Part shown: positions 24,855 to 46,870 of the stretch, in pieces
Layout of the letters: each line of letters opens with the position of its first letter
Position numbering within the stretch: the stretch's first letter is position 1
Source of the DNA: Actinomycetota bacterium
Lineage (GTDB): Bacteria > Actinomycetota > Acidimicrobiia > Spongiisociales > ZC4RG35
Assembly (NCBI GenBank): GCA_052390035.1
Contig: JBQTHI010000044.1
Coordinates: 6,797-70,796 of the forward strand
Length of the DNA stretch: 64,000 nt
Direction of reading: 5' to 3'
Translations under genes and position numbers: made by a program
Notes under the pieces: model-generated
What the model was told of the DNA's origin: nothing
Database searches by the model: none
The model's input: only the letters and a program-made list of their open reading frames with translations

Positions 24855-24897
24855 CGCCGAACGGAGTCCCCGGGGACAGGCGGATAGCCTGATCAGG

Positions 24898-30622: not shown

Positions 30623-31583
30623 ACCAGAGGAGTTCGCCCGTTCTCTCAACGCCGCTCGGGCCGAGATCGGCAAAGTCATCGTCGGCCAGAAGGATCTCGT
30701 CGACACCGTTCTCACCGCCGCGTTGTGCGAAGGCCATGTCCTACTGGAAGGTGTGCCTGGCCTCGGGAAGACCAAACTCCTGGCGACGCTGGGCCGAGTT
30801 TTGGACGTCGAGTTCGGGCGGGTTCAATTCACCCCTGATCTCATGCCTGCCGACATCCTCGGCACCAAGGTTTTGACCGGAAACGACTTCAAGTTCCACG
30901 AAGGTCCGATCTTTGCCAACCTGGTGTTGGCCGACGAAATCAATCGGGCAACTCCCAAGACCCAGTCGGCCCTGCTCGAAGCAATGCAGGAGCGGAGAGT
31001 GACCCTGGGAGGGGAGACCCACGCTCTCCCCCGACCCTTCCTGGTGATGGCGACTCAGAATCCGATCGAGCAGGAAGGCACCTACCCACTCCCCGAGGCT
31101 CAACTCGACCGGTTCCTTTTCAAGGCGCTCGTGAGCTTCCCGCCAGCCGACGACGTGGTTGAGATTCTCCGCCGCACCACCGCCGGCCACGAAGCCCAAC
31201 CCGATCCGGTGATCGATGGGGCAGCGATCATCGCCATGTCGGAGTTCGTGAGGAGCCTCCCCGCCGGGACCCACCTACTTGCCTACGCCGCCACCCTGGT
31301 CGAGGCAACCCACCCGGAAAGTGCCAAGGCTCCGGAAATGGTGCGGCGTTATGTCAGGTTCGGCGCCAGCCCCCGCGGCGCCCAGGCATTGGTCATGGGC
31401 GGGAAGGCCTTCGCCTTGATCGACGGCCGGCCCAACCTCGCCGCCGAAGACATATGGCGGGTGGCCCCGATGGCGCTCCGGCATCGACTGGTGCTCGGCT
31501 ACGAGGCGCTCGCCGACGGGATCAAAGCCGACGAGATCGTCACCGAGGTCCTCGGCGCTTATCCCGCTCCGATTGCCCGTTAG
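30615..31583 (+). CDS. MoxR-family AAA+ ATPase
   Basis: Walker A GVPGLGKT, Walker B LADEINRA and the MoxR N-terminal EIGKVIVGQ motif are present. Confidence 0.85.
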   Translation: MNSPEEFARSLNAARAEIGKVIVGQKDLVDTVLTAALCEGHVLLEGVPGLGKTKLLATLGRVLDVEFGRVQFTPDLMPADILGTKVLTGNDFKFHEGPIFANLVLADEINRATPKTQSALLEAMQERRVTLGGETHALPRPFLVMATQNPIEQEGTYPLPEAQLDRFLFKALVSFPPADDVVEILRRTTAGHEAQPDPVIDGAAIIAMSEFVRSLPAGTHLLAYAATLVEATHPESAKAPEMVRRYVRFGASPRGAQALVMGGKAFALIDGRPNLAAEDIWRVAPMALRHRLVLGYEALADGIKADEIVTEVLGAYPAPIAR

Positions 31584-32453
31584 ATGCTGCTCTCGGCGGA
31601 GTTACGGGGCCGTCTGGAGCGCCTCTCGATCACCACCCGCCGACGGGTCATAGCCCAGTGGGCCGGTCGGCACTCCTCCCGGCACAAAGGCGAGAGCCTT
31701 GACTTCGCCGACTCTCGGGCATATGTGCCCGGTGATGACTTCCGGAGGATCGACCACAACCTCTGGGCCAGGCTCGGCGTTCTTCTGGTTCGTCAATACC
31801 AGGCCGAGGAGGAGCTACCGCTTCGTCTGGTGATCGACACCTCGACCTCAATGGCGTTCTATCGCAAGCTCGAAACAGCCCGCACCCTGTCCGCCATGAT
31901 CGTGTACCTGGGTCTGGCCGGGGGGGACAGGGTCCAGTTGTTCGCCGTGCCAGGGCCCGACGATCTCGCCATGGAGGCGGGCCCGAGTGGCCGCCACCTT
32001 TCCCGCTGGCCGCAACTGGAAGCATGGATCGAGGGCCGCTCACCAACCGGGTCCGGCCCGATGGCGCCGTCTTTGCGACGGCTTGCGGGTGAAGGTCCCA
32101 ACCGCGGCTCGATAGTGCTCGTCTCCGATCTCCTGACCGCCGATTGGCAGCCGGCGCTCGACGGTCTGGGCCTTGGCACCGGAGGAGTGGTGCTCCATGT
32201 CCTCGGCGAAGAGGAAATCGACCCTTCGATTGCAGGCGATGTCCGTCTGGCCGATTCGGAGACCGGATCCGAGTTGGCGGTGTCCACCTCCGAAGAGGCG
32301 ATGCGACGTTATAGAACAGCGTTGGAGCAGTTCGCCTCCGAGGCTGGCCAACGCGCCAAGCGAGCCGGGCTTGATTACGTGTTGGTGCCGGCCCGAGATG
32401 ACGCTCCCGAGCAGGTGCTGGCCGCGCTCGCCCGAAGCGAGGCGGTGGCATGA
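31584..32453 (+). CDS. DUF58 domain protein (MoxR partner)
   Basis: The ATG abuts the moxR TAG. The motif DFADSRAYVPGDDFRRIDHN is typical of DUF58. Confidence 0.75.
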   Translation: MLLSAELRGRLERLSITTRRRVIAQWAGRHSSRHKGESLDFADSRAYVPGDDFRRIDHNLWARLGVLLVRQYQAEEELPLRLVIDTSTSMAFYRKLETARTLSAMIVYLGLAGGDRVQLFAVPGPDDLAMEAGPSGRHLSRWPQLEAWIEGRSPTGSGPMAPSLRRLAGEGPNRGSIVLVSDLLTADWQPALDGLGLGTGGVVLHVLGEEEIDPSIAGDVRLADSETGSELAVSTSEEAMRRYRTALEQFASEAGQRAKRAGLDYVLVPARDDAPEQVLAALARSEAVA

Positions 32454-32469
32454 CTCGGCGGCTCGGGCT

Positions 32470-34278
32470 GTGAGCTTCCTCATACCCACCGCCTTGGGTC
32501 TGGCGGCTCTGGCCGGGCCCCTCATCGTCCTATACATGCTCCGATCCCGACGACCACGCATCGAAGTGGCAAGCACCATGTTGTGGGAGAAGGTCGAGGT
32601 CCCGGTGTCCTCGGCCGTCCCGTGGCAAAAGCTGAAAATGACACCGCTTCTCATTCTCCAGCTGTTGGTGCTCGCCGGTTTCGTGCTCACCCTGGCCCGG
32701 CCGTTCTACACCCAGGCGACATTGCTCGGCCCCCACACCGTGTTTGTGTTCGACACCTCGGGCTCGATGGCGATGGCCGATCGCCTGGAAAAAGCTGTAT
32801 CCAACTCCCGCCGGCTGCTCACCGACCTCTCTTCTGACAACCAGGTATCGATCATCAACGCCGGGCCGGTGCCGAGAGTGTTGGTCGCTTTCGCCCGTGA
32901 CCCCGAACTGGTCGAAACCGGCCTCGACTCCCTCGTGCCAACCGGCGGGCGTGCTGACCTGTCGGGTGCCATCCGCCTCGCCCGCGGTCTGGCCACCCCC
33001 GACCACCCCACCAACATCCTCATCTTCTCCGATGGGGGCGACGCCGTGCTTCCCGAAGAGCCCGTGGTGGGGGCCGAGCTGATCCTCTTTGACGACTTCG
33101 GCCCAAATCTGGCGATCACCTCCTGGTCGCTGGAACCGTCGACCGAAGGTACCACCAGGGCCTTTCTGCAAGTCGCCAATTTCTCGACCGAAGAGCGCAC
33201 CGTCAGGGCGGAGGTAGCCGTCAACGGCCTGGCCGCCGGTCTGCTTGATCTGGACGTACCCGCTCAGGGGAACGCTCGGCGGACCACCCCGATCGACGCC
33301 GGTGCCGGGGACGTGGTTTCGGTCTCGCTGGTCGGCAACGAGGATTCCCTTCCGCTTGATGATCGGGCCGATCTGTTGGTGGGTGGCGGACCGGATCGGG
33401 AGGTGACATTGAGCGGTGAGGGATCACCGTTCCTCGAAGCATTGATCGATGCAGTTCCCGGATTCTCGACGAATACCGCCAACGACGGTGGCGACCTTCA
33501 GGTCATCGATCGCGGGGATCAATATGACATCGACCGGCCAACCTGGCTCATTGCCCCGACCACCCCCCCTGAGGGGGTCACCTTGATTGAATTCGTTCGG
33601 AACACGGCGGTGACCTATCAGCGGCCCGGTGAGCCGATTCTCGATTCGGTCGACCTATCACAGATGGCTGTGGCAGAGGCTCAGGTGGTGGATGCCCCCC
33701 GCTGGCTGACTCTGGTCAGGGCGGGCGAAGTGCCCCTGATCCTGCTGGGGGAGGTGAGCGGACACCGCGTGGCGTATTTCACTTTTGATCTGACTCATTC
33801 CAACCTGCCCATCCAAATCGGGTTTCCGATTTTGGGCGCTCGTCTGCTCGATTGGCTGGCAGGCGGTAGTGCAGGAGCCGTCCTAACCGAACCTGCCGGC
33901 AGCCCGATCCAGTTGACCGCCGCCCCCGGCTCCACCATTTTCGTAACCACGCCCAACGGGGAGCGCAGACAACTCGCCGAGGGCGCTACGTCATTTGTGG
34001 ATACGGGAGCACCCGGCGTCTATCGAGTGGCATCAGTTGACGCCGACGGCGCCGTAAGTGAAGGTCCCTCCGCGGTGCGCACCTTCGTCGCTGAAGAATC
34101 GGCGGGAAGCTCCCGGCTGATCACCACCACCGGAGCCGCCACCGAGACCGAAGAGCCATCGGTGCTGATCAGGGAGTGGGCTCCTTGGGTCATTTCCGTG
34201 GTGGTGGTGTTGATGGCCATCGAGTGGTGGGTTGGCCACCAGCGGCCCTTCTTACCTCGCCGGCGGGTCACCGCATGA
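32470..34278 (+). CDS. BatA-like membrane protein with vWA domain
   Basis: GTG 32470 gives MSFLIPTALGLAALAGPLIVLYMLRSRRP (aerotolerance-regulator N-terminal TM). The vWA MIDAS-like motif is VFDTSGSM. A C-terminal TM is present. Confidence 0.65.
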   Translation: MSFLIPTALGLAALAGPLIVLYMLRSRRPRIEVASTMLWEKVEVPVSSAVPWQKLKMTPLLILQLLVLAGFVLTLARPFYTQATLLGPHTVFVFDTSGSMAMADRLEKAVSNSRRLLTDLSSDNQVSIINAGPVPRVLVAFARDPELVETGLDSLVPTGGRADLSGAIRLARGLATPDHPTNILIFSDGGDAVLPEEPVVGAELILFDDFGPNLAITSWSLEPSTEGTTRAFLQVANFSTEERTVRAEVAVNGLAAGLLDLDVPAQGNARRTTPIDAGAGDVVSVSLVGNEDSLPLDDRADLLVGGGPDREVTLSGEGSPFLEALIDAVPGFSTNTANDGGDLQVIDRGDQYDIDRPTWLIAPTTPPEGVTLIEFVRNTAVTYQRPGEPILDSVDLSQMAVAEAQVVDAPRWLTLVRAGEVPLILLGEVSGHRVAYFTFDLTHSNLPIQIGFPILGARLLDWLAGGSAGAVLTEPAGSPIQLTAAPGSTIFVTTPNGERRQLAEGATSFVDTGAPGVYRVASVDADGAVSEGPSAVRTFVAEESAGSSRLITTTGAATETEEPSVLIREWAPWVISVVVVLMAIEWWVGHQRPFLPRRRVTA

Positions 34279-36974
34279 GGTTCGCCCATCCCTGGTGGTT
34301 GGTGGCCATACCCCCCGTTCTGGGGCTGACCTGGCTAGTCGCCCGGCGCGGGGGACGAGCGGTTTCACGGCGTCAACATCGGTGGGCGCTCGGGATTCGC
34401 CTTGGCGGGTTGCTGCTCTTGGTCACTGCCGCCGCCCAACCGATCGTCACCAGATCGGTGGACGATCGTGCGGTCCTGTTTCTGCTTGATCGGTCTGCTT
34501 CGGTATCGGATTCGGCCCGCGCCGCGCAGGAGGCTTTCCTGAGTGCGGCGCTGGCCGAAGGCAGAGCCGATGGGCGGACCGCGGTGGCGGTGTTTGGCCG
34601 CGACAGTCGACTCGACTCGGCGTTCACCGTTGACAGGTCCGGAGGCCCGATCAGGACGATCCCTGACGACTCGGCGACCGACATCGCTTCGGCCCTGCAA
34701 GCCGCCGCTTCGTTGATGCCCTCGGAGGGTTCACGGCGCATCGTCCTCCTCACCGATCTGGTCCCCACTACGGGCGACGTCGGCCCGGCGATCCGTCAGC
34801 TGGCAGAACAAGGCGTGGCGGTGGATGTCGTCGAGCTGGCGTCCGCTCGAACCCCCGATGCCCTGGTCGAATCGGTGATCCTGCCTCCAGCAGTGCGCGA
34901 GGGTGACACCGTGCCGGTTACGGCGGTGATTCGCTCCAATCAGGCAGGGTCGGCCGTGGTGGCGGTGAGATCCGGCGATGGTGACGAGCAGCGGATTCCC
35001 GTCCAGGTGGTGGCTGGGCGCAACGAGGTATCGCTCGAAGTCAACGCGGTGGGAGTCGGGTTCCTCCCGGTTTCGATCCAGGTCGAAACGGAGTTCGATA
35101 CGAGACCGGAGAACAATCGGGCGGAGGGGATCACCCGAATTCTCGGCCCTGCCCGAGTGGCGGTGGTGGAGGGAGTCGCCGGAGAGGCCGAGGCGCTGGG
35201 TGAGGCGCTCGTCGCCGGAGGAATCGAGGCCGACCTTCGGCGTTCGATCCCCACGGAGGGGGAGCTGCTCAGCTATGACGCGGTCGTCCTGGTGAATGTC
35301 GATCAGCCGGGACTGGTGGAATCGGAGAACCTCTCGGCGTTTGTTGAAGATCTCGGGCGTGGACTGGTGGTTGTTGGTGGCGACCGGGCTTTTGGGCTTG
35401 GTGACTACCACGAGACGCCGCTTGAGGCGGTGCTTCCCGTGAGTTCGAATCCGGACGACCTGGTGAGGCGTCAGCCGGTGGCGGAGGTGCTGGTCATCGA
35501 CTCCTCCGGGTCGATGGGTGCCTGTCACTGCAACATGGGCCAGGCCGCCGAAGGTGGGGTGGTGAAAACCGATATCGCCAAGGCCGGAGCGGAGCTCGCC
35601 ATCAACGCCCTCACCGACGATGATCGGGTTGGTGTGCTGGCGTTCTCATCAGGCACGGACTGGGTGATTCCCCTGGCGCCCCGCTCAACCATCACCGACC
35701 CGGCGGGGGCTCTCGGGGTGATCACTCCCAATGGTGACACCGAGATCTCCAACGCCCTTGAGGTGGCGCTTGACGAGCTGGCCGGCGCTCCCGAGCAGCT
35801 CCGCCACATCGTCCTCTTTACCGACGGGTGGGATCCGAGCGATGCTGCCCTATTGCCAATGGCGCGGGAAATCGCCGATGCCGGAGTGACTCTTTCGGTG
35901 TTGGGCACCGGGGAGGGTCCGGGCACGACTCTGAGCCGGATGGCCGAGCTGGGCGGCGGACGTTTTTACGCCGGCACGGACCTGGAGGCGGTTCCGGAGG
36001 TCTTCGTCGAGGAGACTTTGATCGTTGCCCGCAATCTGGCCGTCGAGGGGACCTTCTTTCCGATCCTCGCTGCCCCATCTCCCGTCACCCAGGATCTGAC
36101 CGCCTCCCCACCCCTGCTCGGTTATGTGCTGACCAAGGCCAAAGGAAGTGCTTCGCTCCTGATGGAGATCGGGCAGGCCGACCCGCTTCTTGCCACCTGG
36201 CAGCGCGGGCTGGGGCGGGCCACCGTCTGGACGTCGGATGCCACCGTCCGGTGGTCGAGCCAGTGGGTGGACTGGGAGGAGTATGCGGACTTCTGGGGTC
36301 GTTTGGTAAGAGACGTGTTGCCAGCGGGGCGGGAGAATCCGCCAGCCGTTCACGTCGAAGACGGCCGGCTGGTCATTTCCTACCAACAGCAGGGCACCGA
36401 CCTCGACGCCTCCGCCTCGGCCCGGGTTCGCCGGCCCGACGGCGAGGTAATCGAAGTCCCCATGGACCGGGTGAGCGGCTCCGATTTCTCCGCCCGGGTA
36501 GCCCTGGGCCCGGCCGGCGCCTATTGGGTCGCCGTCACCGTTGACAATCCCGATGGCTCGCAGATTGTTTCCGGAGCAGGGGCAGTTTCCGCCTATGAAG
36601 AGGAGTTCGCCTTCCGCGAGCCGGATCCGGCGTTGGGGGCCGCCATCACGACGATCACCGGCGGGAGGCTCAACCCCGGACCAGCAACCGTGTTCGATCC
36701 GGCCCCCGTGCGGGGACGGGCCGAAGTTTCCTTCTGGCCGTGGTTGGCCGCCGCCGCTCTGGCTCTCTTCCTCCTCGACGTGGCCTTGAGCCGGCTGCTG
36801 CTCGGGGAGGGTGACGCCCAGGCCTGGCGGGAAGGGCTGACTTCAACCGGCCGTGGCAGGGAGAGGCGGCGGGTGGCGCGGGCAGTTGAAGAGGCCACGA
36901 CCAGTCGGGAGGCACCGCCGGTTCTCTCCGACTCGGAGACCCTCGAACGCCTGATGCGCCGTAAACGACGATGA
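34275..36974 (+). CDS. large membrane protein with two vWA domains and a class-I glutamine-amidotransferase-like domain
   Basis: The ATG overlaps the upstream stop (ATGA). There are two DxSxS-type vWA motifs (LLDRSASVSD; VIDSSGSMG), a GATase1-like segment, and a C-terminal TM plus Arg-rich tail. Confidence 0.6.
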   Translation: MRFAHPWWLVAIPPVLGLTWLVARRGGRAVSRRQHRWALGIRLGGLLLLVTAAAQPIVTRSVDDRAVLFLLDRSASVSDSARAAQEAFLSAALAEGRADGRTAVAVFGRDSRLDSAFTVDRSGGPIRTIPDDSATDIASALQAAASLMPSEGSRRIVLLTDLVPTTGDVGPAIRQLAEQGVAVDVVELASARTPDALVESVILPPAVREGDTVPVTAVIRSNQAGSAVVAVRSGDGDEQRIPVQVVAGRNEVSLEVNAVGVGFLPVSIQVETEFDTRPENNRAEGITRILGPARVAVVEGVAGEAEALGEALVAGGIEADLRRSIPTEGELLSYDAVVLVNVDQPGLVESENLSAFVEDLGRGLVVVGGDRAFGLGDYHETPLEAVLPVSSNPDDLVRRQPVAEVLVIDSSGSMGACHCNMGQAAEGGVVKTDIAKAGAELAINALTDDDRVGVLAFSSGTDWVIPLAPRSTITDPAGALGVITPNGDTEISNALEVALDELAGAPEQLRHIVLFTDGWDPSDAALLPMAREIADAGVTLSVLGTGEGPGTTLSRMAELGGGRFYAGTDLEAVPEVFVEETLIVARNLAVEGTFFPILAAPSPVTQDLTASPPLLGYVLTKAKGSASLLMEIGQADPLLATWQRGLGRATVWTSDATVRWSSQWVDWEEYADFWGRLVRDVLPAGRENPPAVHVEDGRLVISYQQQGTDLDASASARVRRPDGEVIEVPMDRVSGSDFSARVALGPAGAYWVAVTVDNPDGSQIVSGAGAVSAYEEEFAFREPDPALGAAITTITGGRLNPGPATVFDPAPVRGRAEVSFWPWLAAAALALFLLDVALSRLLLGEGDAQAWREGLTSTGRGRERRRVARAVEEATTSREAPPVLSDSETLERLMRRKRR

Positions 36975-37011
36975 CCGTGTCCGAGCGAGAGGGCGGTTAC
37001 CTACCATCCGC

Positions 37012-38112
37012 ATGGTGACCGCAAAGCGACGTCAGGCTGAGAAGCCCCCCGCGTGGCTCTCCCGGGCTGTGATAATCGTCGTCGGGATCCTGGCACTGGC
37101 GGCGGCGGCGGGCTTGGTCCTTTATCGCATCCGCGGGCTGTTCTATATGCTTTTCCTCGCCACCTTCGTGGCAATTGCTCTTGAACCGGCCGTGCAGCGA
37201 CTCGTCAGGCGTGGGTGGAAGCGTTCCCGGGCAACCCAGCTCGTCTTTTTTGTCGCCGCCCTGCTTTTCGCCGGGTTCCTGGTTGCCCTCATCCCGGTGT
37301 TCGTTGCCCAGGCGGCCCGTCTCATCGAGACCGTGCCGCTTTATCTCGAAGACCTACAGCAGCTTGCCTCCACCTACTTTCAAATCGAGCTGGTCGATCC
37401 GGACATCACCGGACAATTCGAGGACCTGGGAGGCCTTTTGCGCCAATATGCCTCGGAGGTGGCGGGAGGAATCTTCGCCATCGGCAACACCGTCTTCGGT
37501 GCCGTCTTCCAATTGGTCACCGTGACCCTGTTCGCCTACTACCTGGTCGCTGTAGGTCCGACCTGGAGACGGGCGCTCTTGTCAACCCTGCCGCCCGAGC
37601 GTCAGCGCGAGGCGCTCAACATCTGGGAGGTATCGGTCGCCAAGACCGGGGGATACGTCTATTCGCGCCTGGTGCTGGCCGTCGTTGCCGGGATATTCAC
37701 CTTCCTGGTGCTGATCATCCTGCGGGTCCCGTCGGCCGCCGCCCTGGCCGTATGGATGGGGGTGCTCTCCCAGTTCGTTCCGGTCATCGGTACCTACGTC
37801 GGGCTCGTATTGCCGGGTCTGGCTGCCCTGGCCTTAAGTCCTCTCACGGCGCTGTGGGTCATTGTTGCCTTGGTCGGCTACCAGCAGATAGAAAACTATC
37901 TGATCGCCCCCAGGGTTACCGCCCGTACGATGGCGATGCACCCGGCGGTCACCATCGGAGCTCTGATCGCTGGAGCGAGCCTCCTCGGGGCGATGGGAGC
38001 GGTGCTGGCCCTCCCCGTGGCGGCGACCATCCAGGCATTGATCTCGACAACACTCCAGCGCCATACCCTGGTGGACTCGCCCTACCTCGAGGATCTGGTT
38101 GAGCGGGTTTGA
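37012..38112 (+). CDS. AI-2E family transporter (PerM/UPF0118)
   Basis: 8 TM segments. The YQQIENYLIAPRV motif is present. Confidence 0.8.
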   Translation: MVTAKRRQAEKPPAWLSRAVIIVVGILALAAAAGLVLYRIRGLFYMLFLATFVAIALEPAVQRLVRRGWKRSRATQLVFFVAALLFAGFLVALIPVFVAQAARLIETVPLYLEDLQQLASTYFQIELVDPDITGQFEDLGGLLRQYASEVAGGIFAIGNTVFGAVFQLVTVTLFAYYLVAVGPTWRRALLSTLPPERQREALNIWEVSVAKTGGYVYSRLVLAVVAGIFTFLVLIILRVPSAAALAVWMGVLSQFVPVIGTYVGLVLPGLAALALSPLTALWVIVALVGYQQIENYLIAPRVTARTMAMHPAVTIGALIAGASLLGAMGAVLALPVAATIQALISTTLQRHTLVDSPYLEDLVERV

Positions 38113-38181
38113 AGTTCCACTAACTGTTGGACCTGCAAGAAGCGGTAGCTCGTCGGGGGCCCGGTTTAGCATGATCAGCCG

Positions 38182-39018
38182 ATGTCGACCCACGTCGAAG
38201 AAAGACGCCGTCTCAGCGCCTGGCCTTTGATCGTCAACTCGATCTTCGCCTCCACGTTTGGCATCTTCATGGCGATGTTGATCGACTCACTGGGCCGGGC
38301 CATCCTCGCTCTCGTGCTCGAGCAGGGTCCGGTCGTCTTTCACGACCGGGTGGAGCTCGCCGGTGACAACCCCGTGACCCTGGCGGGTGGCGCCATAGCT
38401 GCCCTCGTTGCCGGAGGCCTTTTCCTCGCCGTATATCCGGGCAGTACCCGCCACGACGCCTCTCGTCTGGCGGTGCTTTGGCTGATCCTGCATTGCCTGC
38501 GGCAGGGATTTGTCCCCCTGGCCCTCGCGGCGGTTGACGCCGATTCCGATGTTGCAGTTGCCCTCGCCACCTTCGAGCTCCCCTCGGGAATCAATACCGT
38601 GGTGGGGGCGGCCGGAGCGATCGGCCTGCTGCTGGTCTCGCTGGCTGCCGCCCCGGCATTTCTTGCTTTTTCCACCACCCGGCGGGAGATCAGCACCCCA
38701 ACCCGGCGGGTTGCCTACGTCGCCAGGATCGGCCTCCTCCCCGGCCTGGTCAGCGGATTGCTGGCCGCGGTTGGATTCTTCGTCTTGAATTCGGACAGCG
38801 GCCTGGTCACAACTTTGCCCTTCTTTGGCGCTTTCACCATCGCCACCCTCCTCGCCGCTCCGGGAACGCGTACCGTCCAAGCGGATCAGAGCGCCACCAC
38901 CCAGAAGTTCTCGTGGGGACTCTTGCTCGCGGTGGCAGTCATCTTCTCGCTCTTCTATTACGCCCTGGCGCGAGGCATCCCGATCCCCCCCGACCCGGAC
39001 GGCTTCTTCGCGACATGA
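38182..39018 (+). CDS. hypothetical polytopic membrane protein
   Basis: 278 aa with about 7 hydrophobic helices and no recognisable motif. It is the first gene of a tightly spaced six-gene plus-strand run. Confidence 0.45.
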   Translation: MSTHVEERRRLSAWPLIVNSIFASTFGIFMAMLIDSLGRAILALVLEQGPVVFHDRVELAGDNPVTLAGGAIAALVAGGLFLAVYPGSTRHDASRLAVLWLILHCLRQGFVPLALAAVDADSDVAVALATFELPSGINTVVGAAGAIGLLLVSLAAAPAFLAFSTTRREISTPTRRVAYVARIGLLPGLVSGLLAAVGFFVLNSDSGLVTTLPFFGAFTIATLLAAPGTRTVQADQSATTQKFSWGLLLAVAVIFSLFYYALARGIPIPPDPDGFFAT

Positions 39019-39043
39019 CCGCTTCCTGTTGATCCAGCCGCGG

Positions 39044-39553
39044 ATGATTGGGGCCGCCGTCCTCACCATCTCCGATGGCGTCGCCGCCGGTGAGCGACAG
39101 GACATCTCGGGAGACTTGCTGGCGGGTCTGCTCCAAGCCGATGGTTTTGAAGTCGTCCAACGGAGGATCGTTGCCGACGACCGCCGCCTGATAGCTGCCG
39201 GCTTGACGGAGCTTTGTGGTCAAGCTCGCCTCGTGGTGACCACCGGTGGCACCGGCCTCGGCCCCCGCGACGTCACGCCCGAAGCAACCCGTGACGTGAT
39301 TGATCGGGAGGCTCCCGGGATCGCCCAGCTAATGATGGCGGCGGGACTGGCCGCCACTCCCTTGGCTTCGCTCTCCCGGGCGGTGGTGGGCACCCTGGGC
39401 GAGGCTCTGGTCGTGAACCTCCCCGGTAACCCACGAGCCGTGGAAGAAGCGCTGGCGGCGATCGCCCCGGTCCTCCGTCACGCCCTCGACCTGATCGCCG
39501 GTGATACGGCGCACGGACCGCAAACCCAGGGTTCCAGCCAACGATATCGTTAG
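39044..39553 (+). CDS. mog: molybdopterin adenylyltransferase / molybdenum cofactor biosynthesis protein MogA/MoaB
   Basis: The motifs TGGTGLGPRDVTPEA and GNP are present. The start is trimmed to ATG 39044. Confidence 0.7.
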   Translation: MIGAAVLTISDGVAAGERQDISGDLLAGLLQADGFEVVQRRIVADDRRLIAAGLTELCGQARLVVTTGGTGLGPRDVTPEATRDVIDREAPGIAQLMMAAGLAATPLASLSRAVVGTLGEALVVNLPGNPRAVEEALAAIAPVLRHALDLIAGDTAHGPQTQGSSQRYR

Positions 39554-39597
39554 TTGCAGCCCCGAGAATGGGACGGCCATACAGCTAGCCTGCCGTC

Positions 39598-40650
39598 GTG
39601 GCCGCCGACGATCCGCAGATCTTTGCTGCCATCTCTGACTGGACCGATCGGGGGGTGGCCTTTGCCCTGGCTACGGTGATCGGGGTGCGCGGCTCCACGT
39701 ACCGAGGCCTGGCCGCTCGCCAGCTGATGGCAGCCGACGGCACCTCGGTAGGTACCGTTTCGGGTGGCTGCCTTGATCAGGATCTGACCCTCGTTGTTGG
39801 GAAGGTGTTGGCGACCGGCCAGCCGACCAAGATCGAGTTCGACCTCACCGCCGACGACGAAGCAGTGTGGGGGTGGGGCATCGGTTGCAACGGCGCCACC
39901 GAACTGCTGGTCGAACCGGCCGACGGTGCCCGTCGGCTCGTCGAGGCCGTGGAGTCTCATCCCGCCGCCGTCCTCCACGTCTTAAGCGGGGAACACCTTG
40001 GTGAACATTGGTCGCTACCGGCCGCCGATCCCGCCTGGGGTGAGCTGGTGGCGGCGGCCCACGCCGACGGACGGAACCGACGGGTCACCATCGACGAGGT
40101 CGACTACCTCCTAGAGATCGTCGCCCGCAAGCCCCGACTGGTCGTCTGCGGCGCTGGTCATGACGCCGTGCCGCTGGTGAGCCTCGGCTCCGAGCTTGGA
40201 TTCGAGGTGACGGTGGTCGACGACCGTCGCGCCTTCCTGACGCGGGAGCGATTTCCACACGCCGCCGCGCTGGTCCATTGCGCTCCCTCCGAGCTGGCCG
40301 CCCACGTCCCCATCGACCCGGCTACCTCGGTGGTGGTCATGTCCCACAACTATGTGCGGGATGTCGACTTCATCGGTTCGCTGCTTGGACGGCGGGCGGG
40401 ATACATAGGCTGCCTGGGCCCTGGAGAGAGACTCGAGCGGATATTGAAGGACCTCGAAGCATCGGCTCGGGTGATATCCCCCGAAGATCGCCAACACCTC
40501 CATGGTCCCGCCGGGCTCGACCTCGGCGCCGACGGCCCGGTGGAGATCGCCTGGTCGGTGCTCTCCGAGATCCTCGCGGTTCGCCGGCACAGGCAAGGCG
40601 GTTTTCTGGTCGACAAGAAAGGGCCTGCCGGCCTGAGGCGGATACCGTAA
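39598..40650 (+). CDS. xdhC: XdhC/CoxI family molybdoenzyme maturation factor
   Basis: The architecture is XdhC N-terminal domain plus Rossmann domain (LVVCGAGHDAVPL). Confidence 0.7.
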   Translation: MAADDPQIFAAISDWTDRGVAFALATVIGVRGSTYRGLAARQLMAADGTSVGTVSGGCLDQDLTLVVGKVLATGQPTKIEFDLTADDEAVWGWGIGCNGATELLVEPADGARRLVEAVESHPAAVLHVLSGEHLGEHWSLPAADPAWGELVAAAHADGRNRRVTIDEVDYLLEIVARKPRLVVCGAGHDAVPLVSLGSELGFEVTVVDDRRAFLTRERFPHAAALVHCAPSELAAHVPIDPATSVVVMSHNYVRDVDFIGSLLGRRAGYIGCLGPGERLERILKDLEASARVISPEDRQHLHGPAGLDLGADGPVEIAWSVLSEILAVRRHRQGGFLVDKKGPAGLRRIP

Positions 40651-40664
40651 CCAGAGGAGGCACG

Positions 40665-41216
40665 GTGGAAATTTCAGAGGAGTTCGAGGTGGCTCGGACC
40701 GTCGCGGCGGTATGGGACATCTTTCAGGACGTACCGGCGGTCGCTCAATGCCTCCCCGGTGCAACCCTCACCGAGGACAAAGGTGGCAATGTCTACGCCG
40801 GCAATGTTTCGGTCAAACTCGGGCCGATAGCCACCACCTTCGAAGGAGAGGCGGTCATCACGCCCGATGAGGCCAGCCGCCGGGCTTTGATAGATGGCAA
40901 GGGGGTTGATCGGCGCGGCGGTAGCCGAGGGCAGGTGAAGGTCACCTATGTGTTGACCCCCACCGACGGCGGAGGGACGAAGGTGGCGATCCGCGCGGAC
41001 GTCACCATCGCCGGGCCGGCGGCACAGTTCGGACGCACCGGTCTCATACAGGAGATGAGCCGGCGGCTAATCGCCGACTTTGTGAGCTGTCTGGAGGCCA
41101 AACTGGCGGCACCGACTGAGGACGCGGCCGCGGCCATCAAAGCCGAACTCAGGCCTCTGCGGCTCTTTTGGGCAAGTCTGCTGGCCTGGTTGAAGAGGCT
41201 CTTCGCCCGCAGATGA
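40665..41216 (+). CDS. coxG: CoxG-like SRPBCC protein (carbon monoxide dehydrogenase subunit G family)
   Basis: GTG 40665 follows a GGAGG RBS. The fold is SRPBCC/CoxG. The stop overlaps the next start (ATGA). Confidence 0.65.
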   Translation: MEISEEFEVARTVAAVWDIFQDVPAVAQCLPGATLTEDKGGNVYAGNVSVKLGPIATTFEGEAVITPDEASRRALIDGKGVDRRGGSRGQVKVTYVLTPTDGGGTKVAIRADVTIAGPAAQFGRTGLIQEMSRRLIADFVSCLEAKLAAPTEDAAAAIKAELRPLRLFWASLLAWLKRLFARR

Positions 41217-43186
41217 GGTCGCTCTTCGGCTGGCTGAGCGGCCATTGGCCGCCCCGCAGTTCGGTGTTGACTCTGCTCTTGTTGATGGCGGCCTGCGCCG
41301 GCGTGGGTGAACCGCCGCCCGAGTCGGCGGGCAATCGAACGGTCGTCGAGATGTTCGACAACACGTTCTCCTCATCAGAGATCCATATAAAGGTTGGGTC
41401 CGAACTGAGCTTCGTGGGTGCCGGGCGCAACCCACACAACGCGGTGGCGTCAGACGGCTCGTGGACGACCGAGTCGGTGTTTGGCTCCCTTGAGCAGCTG
41501 GCCGGGGAGGAGGCGGTCCTTTCCTTTGAGCGCCCTGGCGAATACGTGTTCTTTTGCACCTTTCATGGGACGGCCGAAGGGGTCGGGATGGCGGCCCGGC
41601 TGGTGGTCGGAGATGCCGGCGCTTCGCCCGCCGCCCAAGGGGTGTCTGATACCAAGGCTCCCGCCCAATGGTCGGGCAACACGCTTCGGGTGCCGGAAGA
41701 CCAGCCGACGATCCAGCAAGCCGTTGACATGGCACTACCAGGCGACCTGGTCCTCATCGGGGCCGGGCTATATCAAGAGGCGATCGAAGTGAACACGCCC
41801 GGTCTGGTCATCCGGGGAGTCGACCGCAATCGGGTAGTGATCGACGCCGGTAATCGAGCCGAGAACGTGATCGATGTCTACAGCGACGGAGTAGCCGTTG
41901 AGAACCTCACCGTCAAAAACGGCATCGCCAACGGCGTCTACTGGGGAGCGGTGAGAGGATACCGGGCTTCGTATGTCACCGCCATCGACAACGGCGACTA
42001 CGGAATTTACGCGTTCGACTCGTCGGATGGGCTCTTCGAATATTCCTACGCCTCGGGTTCACCCGACTCGGGTTTCTATATCGGCCAGTGCGATCCTTGC
42101 CAAGCGGTGATTGATCACGTCGTCTCCGAATGGAATGGGTTGGGCTACTCGGGCACCAATGCCTCCGGTGAGCTTTACATCATCAACAGCGTCTGGCGCT
42201 ACAACGCCGCCGGCATCGTCCCCAACACCCTCGACTCCGAGCTCCTCCCCCCGTTTCACGACGTCACCATCGCCGGGAATGTCATCCACGACAACAGCAA
42301 CCGGAAGGCTCCCGTCAAGTCTGCTCCGTGGTCGGGTTTGGGCAACGGGATCATTCTCGCCGGAGGAAACAGCTCGACCGTGATTCGCAATCTGGTCTTC
42401 AACCATGAGGTCAACGGGATCGCCGTCACTCCCAACCTCGATCGCAACTTCTGGCGGAGCGCCCACAACCGGATCGAAGGCAACGTCGTCGAGGGTTCGG
42501 GCCGCGCCGACCTGGCCCTCGCCGGGCCGGCCGGGCCAGGCAACTGCTTCACCGGGAATCGGGCGACATCTTCCTTCCCGGTAGGTCTTCAGGCTTTCGC
42601 CACCTGCGACGGGGTGCGGCTGCCCGTCCTCTATGAACTGGCCGGGTCGACCGAACAGCTTGGCCGCGTCATGGAGAACGGTCTCGGGCTTCGACCGGAT
42701 AATCCGGTTGGATCCGCCCCCAAGCCCGGACCTCAGGAGAACATGCCGGGCGGGGCCGATGCGCCGGTGAACCCGGCAGTAGACGTTTTCGAAAGCCATC
42801 CGGTAGATCTGGGGGGGATTGTGGTCCCGGAGATGCCCGAAAGACTCACCATCGACCAACCGAAAGGAATCACGGTGTTCGGGATGTTGCTTGGCTCGGT
42901 GACGTCGGTGTTCTTCGGCCTCTATGCCTACTTCTTGCCGTTTGTCCTCTGTGCGGCGTGGGTCACCATCGCCCTCTGGGACCTAGCAAGAAGTGGCCGC
43001 CGGCCAGCCGCCGCCATCGCATGGTCGGCGGCGATCCTTCTGATCCCCTTCGTCGGGGTGATCCTCTATTACATCCTGGGCCGCTCCGCCATCCCTCGAT
43101 GGCAGCGGACGGTGCTGCTCGCCGGCGGTATCGGGGCGTACTTGGTGATCCTCGCCGTTGGAGCTCTCATCGGTGGCGTCGTCTAG
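41213..43186 (+). CDS. lipoprotein with N-terminal cupredoxin domain, NosD-like right-handed parallel beta-helix (CASH) repeats and C-terminal double-TM anchor
   Basis: The lipobox is LLMAAC. Type-1 Cu ligand spacing is H...C-x2-H-x7-M (NPHNAV...FFCTFHGTAEGVGM). Repeated NGI/NxV beta-helix units resemble NosD. Two C-terminal TM helices are present. Confidence 0.65.
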   Translation: MRSLFGWLSGHWPPRSSVLTLLLLMAACAGVGEPPPESAGNRTVVEMFDNTFSSSEIHIKVGSELSFVGAGRNPHNAVASDGSWTTESVFGSLEQLAGEEAVLSFERPGEYVFFCTFHGTAEGVGMAARLVVGDAGASPAAQGVSDTKAPAQWSGNTLRVPEDQPTIQQAVDMALPGDLVLIGAGLYQEAIEVNTPGLVIRGVDRNRVVIDAGNRAENVIDVYSDGVAVENLTVKNGIANGVYWGAVRGYRASYVTAIDNGDYGIYAFDSSDGLFEYSYASGSPDSGFYIGQCDPCQAVIDHVVSEWNGLGYSGTNASGELYIINSVWRYNAAGIVPNTLDSELLPPFHDVTIAGNVIHDNSNRKAPVKSAPWSGLGNGIILAGGNSSTVIRNLVFNHEVNGIAVTPNLDRNFWRSAHNRIEGNVVEGSGRADLALAGPAGPGNCFTGNRATSSFPVGLQAFATCDGVRLPVLYELAGSTEQLGRVMENGLGLRPDNPVGSAPKPGPQENMPGGADAPVNPAVDVFESHPVDLGGIVVPEMPERLTIDQPKGITVFGMLLGSVTSVFFGLYAYFLPFVLCAAWVTIALWDLARSGRRPAAAIAWSAAILLIPFVGVILYYILGRSAIPRWQRTVLLAGGIGAYLVILAVGALIGGVV

Positions 43187-43210
43187 GGATAGGATTCGCC
43201 ACGGAGGTAG

Positions 43211-44425
43211 GTGTTGGCGAAGACCCAAATCAAGGCCCAGGCGAAGCTGGCAATAGAACCGGCGGAAGCCTTTCGCATGTTCACGAACTCGACCGCGGTG
43301 AGGGAGTGGCTGGCTGATGCCGCCATAATCGCCCCCAAACCGGGGGGGAGGGTGTTTCTCGGCTGGAACGACGGTTATCAGACGGCCGGGAACTTCAACC
43401 GATGGAATCCCCCGACGGCGCTCGGTTTCAGCTGGCGTGGGCCGGATGAGAAGCAGACCATCGTCAAAGTTGGCTTCGAAGCTGCCCCCGATGGCGGCAC
43501 TCTGGTTCGGGTCCGTCACACTGGCTTCGCCACCGGCAAGAGAGGAAGGTCGACCCGGCGGGCGCTGCAGTCGGCGTGGGAACGATCGCTCGAGAACCTG
43601 GCGTCCGTCGTGGGGAGCGGAGAAGATCTCCGGTTTACTCGCCGGCCGATGCTCGGGGTATTCGTCGATGACGTCGTGCGGGGAGACGGTGGCCGATCCA
43701 TTGGAGTCCGCCTGGGTGGGGTGGTCGAGGGAATGGGTGCAGCCGGTGCCGGTCTTCGCGGGGGCGATGTTGTCACCGCTCTGGGCGGAACGAAGATCGG
43801 TTCGTTCTCCGATCTGACGGCGGCCCTCACCCCTCATCGGGCCGGTGACACGGTCGAGGTGGCCTTGCTCCGCGACGGTCAGGACCAGCGGGTCGCCATG
43901 ACGCTTTCGGGTCGTCCAATTGGCGATCTCAAGACAACCGCTTCCGACTTGACTGCCCAGGTGGCGGATATGTCTCGACATTTCGGCGACTCCCTCGATG
44001 AAGTGCTGGCGGGGGTCACCAACGAAGAAGCCGAGTTTCGGCCCGGTGCGGGGGAGTGGTCGGTCAAAGAGGTGATGGCTCATCTGATCGACGGCGAGGG
44101 AGATCAGCACTCCTACCTGGCTGAGGCCTTCGAAGGTGGCGAGCGATATCACGACCTGGTTCTCGGCAACTCGCACTGGCGGACGGCGGTCACCGCGGCG
44201 TCTTACCCGGACCCGGCGACGATGCTGGCAAGCTACCGACGGTTGATGGCGCAGACCGTTGAGCTGCTGCGGGCAATGCCGGAGGATCTGGAGCACCGGC
44301 GAGGGACCTTTTGGCGCTTCGCCTTCGGCTTCGCCGACGGCGAATCGCATCACAACCAGCATGTCGATCAGATTCGAGCCGCGCTCGAGGCCGCCCGCAG
44401 GGGATCTAACCCTGAACAGGGGTAG
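43211..44425 (+). CDS. three-domain fusion: SRPBCC (AHSA1-like) - PDZ - DinB/YfiT-like
   Basis: The N-terminus is an Aha1-like SRPBCC fold. The mid-section is PDZ-like (GVRLGGVVEGMGAAGAGLRGGDVVTALGG). The C-terminal DinB_2-like His motifs are HLIDGE...HHNQH. Confidence 0.55.
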   Translation: MLAKTQIKAQAKLAIEPAEAFRMFTNSTAVREWLADAAIIAPKPGGRVFLGWNDGYQTAGNFNRWNPPTALGFSWRGPDEKQTIVKVGFEAAPDGGTLVRVRHTGFATGKRGRSTRRALQSAWERSLENLASVVGSGEDLRFTRRPMLGVFVDDVVRGDGGRSIGVRLGGVVEGMGAAGAGLRGGDVVTALGGTKIGSFSDLTAALTPHRAGDTVEVALLRDGQDQRVAMTLSGRPIGDLKTTASDLTAQVADMSRHFGDSLDEVLAGVTNEEAEFRPGAGEWSVKEVMAHLIDGEGDQHSYLAEAFEGGERYHDLVLGNSHWRTAVTAASYPDPATMLASYRRLMAQTVELLRAMPEDLEHRRGTFWRFAFGFADGESHHNQHVDQIRAALEAARRGSNPEQG

Positions 44426-45209
44426 TGGGGCGAGGATCCGGGAGGGGGGCCGGTTTGCGCCTCATCGCCGGATGAGGCAGCGGTCTGGGTCGCTCGAGCT
44501 GGGTGACGAGGAGCTTGTACACTTTTGGCCCGATCATCTCGGTCAGCTCCTCTCGCAGCGCCCGGTAAACCGGCTCACCCCCGACAAAGGCGAGCGGGCT
44601 GTCGGTGCACCACCAGGAGAACTCGTCGCCACCATCCCCCCAGTCGCGGCGTTTCCATTCGCGGACGGTGGCCGTCGTATGACCGGCGCCGTCGCTCTCC
44701 TCCTCGAGGCGTAGCGGCAGCTGCCAGCAAACGTTGGGTTTCCAATCCAGGGGTCGCTCACCAGCCTGGAGGGCACCGAGGTGGAGAGCGCAGCCGGCTC
44801 CGGCGGCAAAACCCGGCCGGTTGAGGAATATGCAAGCGTCGTCGACCAGGCGGCTCGTCGTTTCTTCTCCTCGCTTGCGCCACACCCGCTCACCGGCCTT
44901 TTTGCGGAACTGCCAGTTGGTGTCGTCCAGACGTTGTGCATGTGCTTCAACCCGGGCAACATCTTGCTCGTCGGTGAACCATGCCCCCATCGAACAGCAG
45001 CCCTGCTGGAGCTCGGGTGTCGGCGTTGTGTAGATCCCCAGACACCCCCGGCCGAATATGCACATCCAAGATGAACGGAGGAATGTGGCGTCGAACATCC
45101 ATGTTTTGTTCCGATCGGGATCACTGAATGAGATGAAGTCATGAACGTCGGCGGGGGACCGCATGCGAGGAAGATCGTAGGCCCGACGCGCCACGCAACT
45201 GGTGGCCAA
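44406..45209 (-). CDS. hypothetical Cys-rich protein
   Basis: 267 aa with 9 Cys in short-spaced groups (CIFGRGC, GCCSMG, DDACIF, GCALH), which suggests a metal or Fe-S site. It lies immediately downstream of the HD-GYP gene on the same strand. Confidence 0.4.
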   Translation of the reverse strand: MATSCVARRAYDLPRMRSPADVHDFISFSDPDRNKTWMFDATFLRSSWMCIFGRGCLGIYTTPTPELQQGCCSMGAWFTDEQDVARVEAHAQRLDDTNWQFRKKAGERVWRKRGEETTSRLVDDACIFLNRPGFAAGAGCALHLGALQAGERPLDWKPNVCWQLPLRLEEESDGAGHTTATVREWKRRDWGDGGDEFSWWCTDSPLAFVGGEPVYRALREELTEMIGPKVYKLLVTQLERPRPLPHPAMRRKPAPLPDPRPTTPVQG

Positions 45210-45220
45210 TGAGCATGGGC

Positions 45221-46870
45221 CTAGTTGACGGTGACCGACACCACCGCCGTGTCACATGCCCCGTCGACGTCACAAACCTGATATGTGAAATTGACCATTC
45301 CGGAGAAGTTGGGAGGGGCGGAATAACGGATTCGGCCGTTACCGAAGACGACCGCCGATCCGACCGAGGGGGCATCCACAATTGACAGCGAGCTAGCGAC
45401 GATTGGCCCCGAGTCGTTTGCCAATACGCCGATGTTGACCTTCTCGTTCGGTCGGGTGAAGGCTGAGTCGTCCAAGGCCGCCAGTGTGCCGGGGATGGTG
45501 GTGGTCGTGGTGGTGGTGGTGGTGGGCAGGGTCGTGGTGGTGGTGGTGGTGGTCGTTGAGGTGAGGGGTCCGCTGGTGGTCGTGGTGGGCCCCGCCGGGA
45601 GCGTCGTGCTTGCGCTGGTAGTGGTGGATGAGGTCGGCGTTGGCGTCGCCGGTCCCGAGCCGGTCGGTACTTCCGAGAGCCCCGTTCCTCCCGGCCTCCC
45701 GCCCGCACTCGCCGTGGGTTGTCCCTCGGCGAGTTGTTCGATTCGGGCGCGGACCGGTTGGTGGACGAGGTCAATTGCCGGGAGGAGGTTGGCGGAGCCG
45801 GCGGTGGCGGTGATGAGGCCGGCGGCGATCACCGTCGCCACATCGCGACCGAGGACCTCCAATGGACGGAGCAGAGGAAGATCGGCGAGGGCGGCCAGCG
45901 GTCCGGTCGACCACCGCAACCGCCCGAGGGCGATGTTCATGAGGGCGCGGACGACTCGTGGGTCGAATTGTGCGCCGGCGTGGCGGGCCACTTCGGCGCG
46001 AGCATCGGCGTGACTCATCTTGGTTTTGTACGAACGGCCGGTGACCATCACGTCATAGGCATCGGCCACCGCAACGATGCGGGCTCCAAGGGCAATGTCT
46101 TCGCCGGCAAGGCCGTGGGGGTAGCCGGAGCCGTCCCACCTTTCGTGGTGATGTTCGATGGTGGTCGCCCACGGTCCGAGCCAGCCCACGATCGGAGCGA
46201 TGAGGCGCATCCCCTCGAGGGGATGGCGATGAATCTGCTTCCACTCCTCGGCGTCGAGGGAGGATGGCTTGTTGAGGATCTCGGCCGGCACCTCCAGCTT
46301 GCCGATGTCGTGAAGTAAAGCTGCCCAGCGCAGTCGATCGCGAGCCTCGTCTCCGAGTCTCATCTCCTCCGCCAGCAGATCGGTGTAGGCGCGGGTTCTC
46401 TCCGAGTGTCCCCGGGTCCGACGGTCGTGCTGGGAGAGGGAGGCGGCGAGAGTGAGGATCAGCTCGGCGGCTTCGGCGATGTCCTGCTTACCAGCGGCGG
46501 TGGCCGCCTCCAGTCGAGCCCGAAGCTGGTTGACGCCGCCGGCGCGATGGGCGACACGGTAGCGGGGGGGAGCCTTGTCGGGAAACGCCAAGGTCAGCTT
46601 CAAAAGGGCGGACAGCGGTATGAGGCGCCTGGTGAACGTTTCGGTGATGTGGGCGGCGAGGCCGGCCGTGGCGATGACCACCGTCCACCACAGCACGATG
46701 GCCATCGGCTCCTGGGGCGATTCCATGAGGCTCGCCGCGACACCACCGGCGAAATACCCGGCGACGATCGGGATGGCAAACGCCGCCAGCCGCACCACCG
46801 TGGCGATTCCCCGACGAGAGCGCCATTGGTGGGCGGATCGCTCCTTTGACCGCGGCCTACGACCCTTCAC
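45221..46870 (-). CDS. membrane HD-GYP phosphodiesterase with C-terminal Thr/Pro-rich linker and Ig-like (VCBS/cadherin-like) domain
   Basis: The start is GTG. Two N-terminal TM helices precede the HD (HDIGK) and GYP (HHERWDGSGYPHGL) motifs. A third hydrophobic helix follows, then a poly-Thr linker and the C-terminal NFTYQVCDVDGACDTAVVSVTV motif. Confidence 0.7.
   Translation of the reverse strand: MKGRRPRSKERSAHQWRSRRGIATVVRLAAFAIPIVAGYFAGGVAASLMESPQEPMAIVLWWTVVIATAGLAAHITETFTRRLIPLSALLKLTLAFPDKAPPRYRVAHRAGGVNQLRARLEAATAAGKQDIAEAAELILTLAASLSQHDRRTRGHSERTRAYTDLLAEEMRLGDEARDRLRWAALLHDIGKLEVPAEILNKPSSLDAEEWKQIHRHPLEGMRLIAPIVGWLGPWATTIEHHHERWDGSGYPHGLAGEDIALGARIVAVADAYDVMVTGRSYKTKMSHADARAEVARHAGAQFDPRVVRALMNIALGRLRWSTGPLAALADLPLLRPLEVLGRDVATVIAAGLITATAGSANLLPAIDLVHQPVRARIEQLAEGQPTASAGGRPGGTGLSEVPTGSGPATPTPTSSTTTSASTTLPAGPTTTTSGPLTSTTTTTTTTTLPTTTTTTTTTIPGTLAALDDSAFTRPNEKVNIGVLANDSGPIVASSLSIVDAPSVGSAVVFGNGRIRYSAPPNFSGMVNFTYQVCDVDGACDTAVVSVTVN
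45495..45640. repeat. (GGT/ACC)n-rich trinucleotide repeat tract encoding the poly-Thr linker
   Basis: The plus strand reads ggtggtggtcgtggtggtggtggtgg... Confidence 0.7.

Follow-up and report, generated by a model that had tools for sequence, protein, structure and literature searches.

A predicted membrane-anchored blue-copper β-helix protein and the two-domain multicopper oxidase that recurs beside its gene

The window analysed here is a stretch of 64,000 nucleotides from an Actinomycetota bacterium of the class Acidimicrobiia (assembly GCA_052390035.1, contig JBQTHI010000044.1, positions 6,797 to 70,796 of the forward strand), with a G+C content of about 64%. Within it, six closely packed genes on the plus strand (g1 to g6) place a lipoprotein with a cupredoxin domain, g5, directly behind genes related to the molybdenum cofactor (Moco). 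A first-pass annotation, made from the sequence alone, had proposed that g5 delivers copper to a molybdenum-copper enzyme; a comparison of g5 and its surroundings across 85 loci leads us to lean toward a different view, in which g5 is an electron-transfer protein belonging to a copper module that has not been characterised. The genes of the locus, their starts compared with the N-termini of homologues and the parts of g5 set out beneath it, are these:

38182..39018, plus strand: g1, polytopic membrane protein, 278 amino acids
39044..39553, plus strand: g2, MogA/MoaB-family molybdopterin-binding protein, 169 amino acids (Pfam MoCF_biosynth)
39598..40650, plus strand: g3, XdhC/CoxI-family molybdenum-cofactor insertion chaperone, 350 amino acids (Pfam XdhC_CoxI and XdhC_C)
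40665..41216, plus strand: g4, CoxG-family SRPBCC protein, 183 amino acids (Pfam COXG; GTG start after GGAGG)
41213..43186, plus strand: g5, cupredoxin-β-helix-PLDc_N lipoprotein
41213..41296, plus strand: g5 lipoprotein signal peptide, residues 1-28, lipobox L-M-A-A-C28, as read from the sequence
41330..41611, plus strand: g5 cupredoxin domain, about residues 40-133, type-1 copper ligands His75, Cys115, His118 and Met126
41660..42712, plus strand: g5 right-handed parallel β-helix core, about residues 150-500, a dense conserved polar stretch with an invariant Q-C293-D-P-C296 loop
42872..43186, plus strand: g5 C-terminal membrane anchor, PLDc_N, three predicted long helices, residues 555-656
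43211..44425, plus strand: g6, cytoplasmic SRPBCC(AHSA1)-PDZ-DinB_2 fusion, 404 amino acids

The spacing of these genes is much as it had first been described, close-set or overlapping and all on one strand: the gaps from g1 to g4 are 25, 44 and 14 nucleotides, g4 and g5 share a 4-nucleotide ATGA overlap (41213-41216), and 24 nucleotides separate g5 from g6. The stop codon of g4 thus overlaps the start codon of g5, and coxG overlaps the downstream cupredoxin or g5 gene in the same way in two related loci (L001 and L004). The genes g1 to g5 are probably co-transcribed. The ends of the operon are provisional, because the plus-strand gene run opens far upstream of g1, at 30615-38112, where a MoxR-DUF58-BatA-VWA cluster lies together with the gene of an AI-2E transporter, and because consensus scans gave neither a sigma-70-like promoter within 36900-45300 nor a terminator-like site between any two of the genes g1 to g6. 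That upstream stretch, also on the plus strand, encodes MoxR (AAA_3), DUF58, BatA/VWA and VWA/GATase1_like proteins in the manner of a “Bat-like” operon, together with the AI-2E family transporter, and the same arrangement is seen in close relatives.

The domains first assigned to these proteins hold up against profile hidden Markov models, every Pfam match exceeding its gathering score. In g5 the matches are to Copper-bind (30.8 bits, cut-off 21.2), Beta_helix (52.8 bits) and PLDc_N (38.0 bits), and an AlphaFold2 model with a predicted local distance difference test (pLDDT) score of 88.8 runs from a signal helix through a cupredoxin and a long right-handed β-helix to three helices at the C-terminus, which correspond to PLDc_N. 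The signal segment has low pLDDT, as expected for a signal that is cleaved, and the lipobox cysteine, Cys28, is kept in at least 90% of 23 homologues. On these sequence features g5 is predicted to be anchored at both ends, by lipid at its N-terminus and by the PLDc_N helices at its C-terminus, and to face outward.

The first-pass annotation had made conservation of the four type-1 copper ligands a test of the cupredoxin assignment, and His75, Cys115, His118 and Met126 are indeed kept in all 66 homologues that carry the domain. When its profile is compared with solved structures in the Protein Data Bank (PDB), the matches include amicyanin (1SFD, E 4.6e-10) and plastocyanin (1BXU, E 1.4e-9), and the Cys-x2-His-x7-Met loop aligns with the ligand loop of plastocyanin. 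It also matches cupredoxins that are tethered to larger proteins, namely those of a copper nitrite reductase (6HBE, E 1.6e-9, ranking third) and of Nmar_1354 (9CCK, E 1.3e-7). By family match and by ligands the domain is of the type-1 blue copper kind, with copper binding and electron transfer as its predicted activities. A strict His-Cys-His-Met site of this sort is the signature of an electron carrier or redox centre, not of a copper chaperone or a copper-transfer site.

Conservation of the β-helix core is also very strong. Residues R205, D211, Y263, D285, Y289, C293, C296, E306 and D341 are invariant in all 85 sequences, drawn from five phylum- or class-level groups, and C445 and C465 are nearly so. 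The conserved polar residues recur every 21-23 residues or so, about one helical rung, a spacing that suggests they line one face of the helix. The first-pass annotation had called this domain NosD-like, and that description stands for the fold and fails for the family. Specifically, the Pfam NosD match is marginal (25.9 bits, cut-off 23.6) and lies beneath the stronger Beta_helix match; the NosD model TIGR04247 scores g5 at 36.6 bits against a cut-off of 300, in a match confined to residues 167-237; and no NosD chain is found in the PDB at E <= 10 with a profile of the g5 β-helix alone. Because TIGR04247 fails and no NosD chain is recovered, “NosD-like” describes only the shape of the protein. 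Both g5 and NosD, the component of NosDFY that matures nitrous oxide reductase (PDB 7O0Y), place a right-handed parallel β-helix outside the cytoplasm; NosD is not the best structural match of g5, however, and g5 differs from it in having a fused type-1 cupredoxin and a membrane anchor of its own. Likewise, no cluster of nosF, nosY, nosL or nosZ-like neighbours is conserved in the 85-locus census.

The β-helix of g5 is in fact no closer to NosD than to the alginate epimerases. The mannuronan C5-epimerases AlgE4 and AlgG and the PL6 alginate lyases (for example 2PYG and 8JA4) share only 19% identity with it and give no match at the sequence level, and they have no counterpart of the invariant CxxC loop or of the fused cupredoxin. 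The best NCBIfam match is to TIGR03805, “parallel beta-helix domain-containing protein”, at 76.9 bits, although this is under the 141.5-bit cut-off and the identity is 26-29%. One neighbourhood of a TIGR03805 member was inspected, on the megaplasmid of Ruegeria pomeroyi DSS-3 (L088:1055-5281), where genes for a c-type cytochrome, a cytochrome c peroxidase and a TPR protein are followed by that of the TIGR03805-type β-helix protein. Of the annotated plasmid relatives it alone adjoins cytochrome genes, a possible sign that pairing with redox carriers is common in this branch of β-helix proteins.

It is informative to place g5 within its wider family. A protein search finds more than 4,000 relatives, and a scan with the g5 profile finds 689 cluster representatives (50% identity level) at E <= 1e-30. 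Their architectures comprise the β-helix alone, the β-helix with a cupredoxin, with PLDc_N or with PD40 propellers, and tandem forms. Members occur in Actinomycetota, in Leptospira (including the pathogen L. interrogans), in Gemmatimonadota and in Chloroflexota, with β-helix-only relatives in haloarchaea. In 18 loci, for example L004, the cupredoxin has a gene of its own, placed immediately before that of the β-helix, a modularity typical of electron-carrier modules. The haloarchaeal homologues, on megaplasmids of Haladaptatus and Natrinema (L085:5902-7107 and L086:5968-6849), are 43-51% identical to the g5 core and have no cupredoxin, PLDc_N or adjacent oxidase; by their existence the core module crosses the boundary between bacteria and archaea. 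The neighbours of the haloarchaeal, Streptomyces and Hymenobacter plasmid relatives are uninformative and include no oxidase.

For the comparison of neighbourhoods, 85 loci were used, each from another species: the window, 80 loci derived from the Genome Taxonomy Database (GTDB), kept from at least 589 confirmed g5-matching stretches in its species-representative genomes, and four metagenome loci with precomputed Pfam annotation. Neighbours were counted by tblastn with the proteins of the window and by independent de novo clustering of the neighbouring open reading frames (ORFs). The commonest neighbour of g5 is a two-domain multicopper oxidase, which lies immediately downstream in 55 of the 80 loci with enough flank. 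It is present in 10 of 10 such loci in Leptospira, 10 of 11 in Nitriliruptoria, 2 of 4 in Gemmatimonadota, the single locus in Chloroflexota and 32 of 54 among the Acidimicrobiia and others. In most other genomes the oxidase thus occupies the position that g6 has in the window; in close relatives of the window the same position is held by a DUF2277 or Rv0495c-like gene. No homologue of g6 was found in any of the 84 related loci (tblastn, E <= 1e-5), so the conserved unit comprises five genes at most, and g6 is a lineage-specific addition outside it.

In L. interrogans ATCC 43642 (L084:9926-14259) a four-gene cluster encodes a cupredoxin-β-helix(-PLDc_N) protein, a small PLDc_N protein, the two-domain oxidase and an SCO1-SenC protein, and the nine other Leptospira loci with downstream flank share this layout. 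The PLDc_N match of the large protein is weak there, at 22.5 bits just under the 23.3-bit cut-off, and a small ORF resembling the small PLDc_N protein recurs in Nitriliruptoria and in L033. The context in Leptospira is purely copper-related, and no description of the cluster was found in the searchable literature.

The association with Moco genes is distributed quite differently. CoxG, MogA and g1 lie upstream of g5 in 20-21 of 48 Acidimicrobiia and other loci, the window counted, with g1 directly upstream of mogA in 21 of the 48; XdhC is upstream in only 12, and 8 of the 20 loci with a CoxG link lack it. The synteny of g5 with this set, which the first-pass annotation had made a test of their functional linkage, is therefore real, with coxG, mogA and g1 beside g5 in about 19 species-level genomes other than that of the window. 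Moco genes are nonetheless found in none of the 22 g5 loci of Leptospira, Nitriliruptoria, Gemmatimonadota and Chloroflexota, and they adjoin only those copies of g5 that are at least 51% identical to the g5 of the window (five of the Moco-linked loci carry the depositor title “uncultured Acidobacteriota”). Furthermore, AceE is retained downstream in most Moco-linked loci, so the whole neighbourhood is syntenic and the Moco linkage does not clearly rise above background synteny. Among the Acidimicrobiia and others, 14 loci combine g5 and the oxidase with no Moco gene at all, and 11 hold CoxG, g5 and the oxidase in one block.

The copper motifs H..H.HG, FH.H and H[PA]H are found in all 55 oxidases and HCH in 54 of them, and the motifs in combination make up four HxH-type copper sites. 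A loose twin-arginine (Tat-like) pattern lies within the first 250 residues of 42 of the 55. Identification with NirK was considered and rejected, the equivalog model scoring 83 bits against a cut-off of 296. Among solved structures the closest are the multicopper oxidase 3GDC (E 2e-63) and 7RAB, and there is also a match to the core of 9CCK (E 4e-42). The last of these is Nmar_1354, of the MCO4 lineage in Nitrosopumilus maritimus, a two-domain oxidase with a “dangling” C-terminal type-1 cupredoxin whose extra copper lies 13.5 Å from the type-1 copper of the oxidase (PMC11761707). The tethered cupredoxins of Nmar_1354 and 6HBE are homologous to that of g5, the core of Nmar_1354 is homologous to the oxidase adjacent to g5, and in both systems an extra type-1 carrier is combined with a two-domain oxidase of the trimeric type. 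The matches to 9CCK and 6HBE hence provide a precedent for a tethered cupredoxin working with such an oxidase. The g5 system differs in what its cupredoxin is joined to, namely a β-helix and a membrane anchor instead of the oxidase; the oxidase has its own gene, and the window contains none.

On balance, we cautiously favour reading g5 as an electron-transfer protein with a blue-copper centre, anchored in the membrane and facing outward, that belongs to an uncharacterised copper module; it would normally exchange electrons with the adjacent two-domain oxidase, and its β-helix would provide a binding or catalytic surface. The type-1 centre of g5 would perform one-electron transfer; the tethered cupredoxin would pass electrons between a partner bound to, or oxidised by, the β-helix and the type-1 site of the oxidase, and the oxidase would then reduce O2. 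The dangling cupredoxin of the archaeal Nmar_1354 operates in a comparable way, and so do the cupredoxins that donate electrons to copper nitrite reductases. Both the partner and the direction in which electrons move are inferred, and a catalytic part for the β-helix is likewise presumptive. In the lineage of the window the adjacent oxidase has, on this reading, been lost or moved, with the lineage-specific, cytoplasmic g6 now in its place. Every domain of g5 is of a known kind, and there are earlier examples of tethered cupredoxins feeding copper oxidases. In full-text literature searches neither the family nor its pairing with the oxidase was found to be described, and searches on NosD-like or β-helix proteins with multicopper oxidases, and on the copper genes of Leptospira, gave nothing relevant.

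Several observations weigh against this proposal. The partner oxidase is missing precisely at the locus studied here, and tblastn finds no multicopper oxidase anywhere in the 64-kb window; the same is true of the adjacent position throughout the clade of the window (L001 and L005-L008), where Moco genes are present. More widely, 25 of the 80 loci have no adjacent oxidase; the genes beside g5 differ from locus to locus there and encode an MFS transporter, a glycosyltransferase, DUF2330, a peptidase or a flavoprotein disulfide reductase. Ten alternative architectures were inspected for a joining of β-helix and oxidase, and none has one; what they contain is tandem β-helices, PD40 propellers or a cupredoxin. 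In structure the g5 β-helix best matches polysaccharide epimerases and lyases, a resemblance that points to the binding of glycans more than to redox chemistry. Finally, given the ATGA overlap that recurs in L001 and L004, the tie between g5 and CoxG could still be a functional one.

The most serious alternative, which we think unlikely but worth holding in view, is that g5 serves cuproenzyme maturation or copper homeostasis. As a NosD- or CutF-like factor it would handle Cu(I) through its β-helix, perhaps at the CxxC loop, and load the oxidase or another exported cuproenzyme; or else the pair would confer copper tolerance of the cuprous-oxidase type. Dedicated maturation factors for oxidases do exist, the Rhodobacter cutFOG system reportedly being an example. 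The position of g5 beside a copper-requiring oxidase in 55 of 80 loci, the SCO1/SenC copper chaperone that follows the oxidase in Leptospira, the invariance of C293-x-x-C296 in 85 of 85 sequences and the resemblance of the β-helix to NosD would all suit such a role, as would a reported case from a Rhodococcus plasmid, where copper-resistance genes are closely followed by the gene for an oxidase 57% identical to 3GDC (PMC8556283). However, the conserved His-Cys-His-Met set of g5 points to a redox centre and not a site of copper transfer, and membership of the NosD sequence family fails. In addition, no ABC partner of the NosF/NosY type adjoins g5 in any group, the ABC-2 pair of the window lying 12 kb away, and the clade of the window keeps g5 intact with no adjacent oxidase.

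A more ambitious version of the electron-transfer idea, which we regard as improbable, holds that g5 and its two-domain oxidase form a new outward-facing oxidase system in which the β-helix binds or converts a substrate. That substrate, handled by the invariant CxxC loop and by conserved residues of acidic and aromatic type, might be an envelope glycan, a thiol or Cu(I); the type-1 copper would relay electrons to the oxidase and to O2, and in loci of the Acidimicrobiia type the g1-MogA-(XdhC)-CoxG set would dock a molybdenum hydroxylase at the same place on the membrane. If this were true, oxidation of a trace gas or an aldehyde would be coupled to a copper-only terminal oxidase.

It is also worth considering that the molybdenum enzyme might itself be exported. 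XdhC would then mature a Tat-exported member of the xanthine-oxidase family (compare PaoABC of E. coli and its chaperone PaoD), and the cupredoxin of g5 would be its outward electron acceptor, passing electrons to O2 where the oxidase is present. Such a client solves the problem of topology, with client and cupredoxin both outside the membrane; the best NCBIfam match of g3 is “XdhC family aldehyde oxidoreductase maturation factor” (149 bits), and CoxG, g5 and the oxidase do occur together, in the 11 loci noted above. We nonetheless consider this very unlikely. The score of g3 is far under the 350-bit cut-off, which supports assignment at the level of the XdhC family only; neither the ten largest other ORFs of the window nor the 10-kb flanks of the four annotated relatives include an enzyme of the xanthine-oxidase family; eight of the 20 CoxG-linked loci have no XdhC; and the pairing of g5 with the oxidase is widespread where there is no Moco gene of any kind.

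The original proposal, that g5 together with the MogA, XdhC and CoxG of its operon delivers copper to a Mo-Cu carbon monoxide dehydrogenase (CODH)-like or other Mo/Cu enzyme encoded elsewhere, was not borne out by the comparison and is, in our view, the least probable of these explanations. Insertion of copper into CODH is a cytoplasmic process carried out by CoxD, CoxE and CoxF. What speaks for the proposal is the tight packing of the genes with the ATGA overlap of g4 and g5, the recurrence of the block g1-mogA-(xdhC)-coxG-g5 in about 20 species-level genomes including that of the window (with the overlap kept in L001 and L004), and an upstream MoxR AAA+ ATPase and VWA proteins that are loosely reminiscent of CoxD and CoxE. 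Against this, MogA, XdhC and CoxG lack signal peptides and are cytoplasmic, but g5 is an exported protein with a lipid anchor, so it lies on the wrong side of the membrane for CODH copper insertion, and its strict type-1 site indicates electron transfer and not the handing over of copper. Catalytic subunits are likewise absent: the earlier statement that the window has no CoxLMS or XdhABC was upheld, the ten largest other ORFs including nothing of the CoxL/XdhA type, and the four Pfam-annotated relatives (L001-L004) have neither coxLMS nor xdhABC within 10 kb. The upstream MoxR/VWA proteins are probably not CoxD and CoxE, their architecture being that of a Bat operon (DUF58, BatA, GATase1_like); the VWA proteins have no VWA_CoxE match at E <= 1e-4, and no CoxF candidate was identified. 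Finally, the cross-phylum neighbour of g5 is the two-domain oxidase, the four groups beyond the Acidimicrobiia and others have g5 with no Moco gene, as do 14 oxidase-bearing loci among the Acidimicrobiia and others themselves, XdhC is not a constant member of the set, and the Moco linkage is confined to close copies whose entire neighbourhood is conserved.

In terms of known systems, g2, g3 and g4 do belong to the same families as parts of the cox accessory set (coxD, E, F, G and I) and the XdhC chaperones, being of the MogA/MoaB, XdhC/CoxI and CoxG families respectively. The locus of the window departs from that set in having no nearby coxLMS, no VWA protein matching the CoxE type and no CoxF candidate, and in placing its copper protein outside the membrane. 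The position of g5 behind g1-mogA-xdhC-coxG probably does not make it a maturation factor for a cytoplasmic Mo-Cu enzyme, and operon-like packing with Moco genes, however tight, gives no warrant for predicting such a role.

The interest of g5 rests less on the Moco linkage than on a copper module that is conserved yet unstudied and that spans five phylum- or class-level groups, pathogenic Leptospira among them. The family joins a classical electron-carrier domain to a fold better known from glycan enzymes and NosD. Since the physiological substrates of two-domain oxidases are poorly known, solving the function of g5 would clarify what these oxidases do in the cell envelope, and the Leptospira cluster could open a genetically tractable copper system.

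The remaining proteins of the locus can be assigned with varying precision. The membrane protein g1 has no Pfam or NCBIfam match; only 76 relatives were detected, annotated at source as “hypothetical protein” or under a JGI label that is evidently spurious, and where a source organism is named it is a metagenome-assembled genome (MAG) of Acidimicrobiia or Actinomycetota, or else a soil metagenome. A role for g1 as a redox or metal-binding membrane subunit was rejected: its alignment has no invariant His, Cys or Met suggestive of a cofactor, it lacks a Pfam match, and its relatives are confined to sources of the Acidimicrobiia/Actinomycetota type. For g2, Pfam MoCF_biosynth scores 112.9 bits and TIGR00177 scores 114 bits (cut-off 85); MogA and MoaB cannot be told apart here, because both NCBIfam equivalog models fall under their cut-offs. 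The Pfam scores of g3 are 64.2 bits (XdhC_CoxI) and 114.4 bits (XdhC_C). The CoxG protein g4 (Pfam COXG, 71.3 bits) has a hydrophobic and basic C-terminal tail, and its homologues are 63-75% identical among the 120 matches listed, the named ones coming from Acidimicrobiia or Actinomycetota MAGs. In g6 the Pfam matches are to AHSA1 (58.3 bits), PDZ_2 (43.6 bits) and DinB_2 (39.1 bits).

Two further parts of the window may be mentioned. Upstream, long ORFs with no Pfam match at 24799-27030 (743 amino acids) and 28968-30566 (532 amino acids) flank a pair of genes for an ABC-2 type exporter (27027-28981). Beyond g6, on the minus strand at 45221-46870, lies a gene for an HD-GYP-type (HD_5) protein with a Thr/Pro-rich linker and a C-terminal bacterial Ig/cadherin-like domain, and a related gene is kept downstream of g5 in several related loci.

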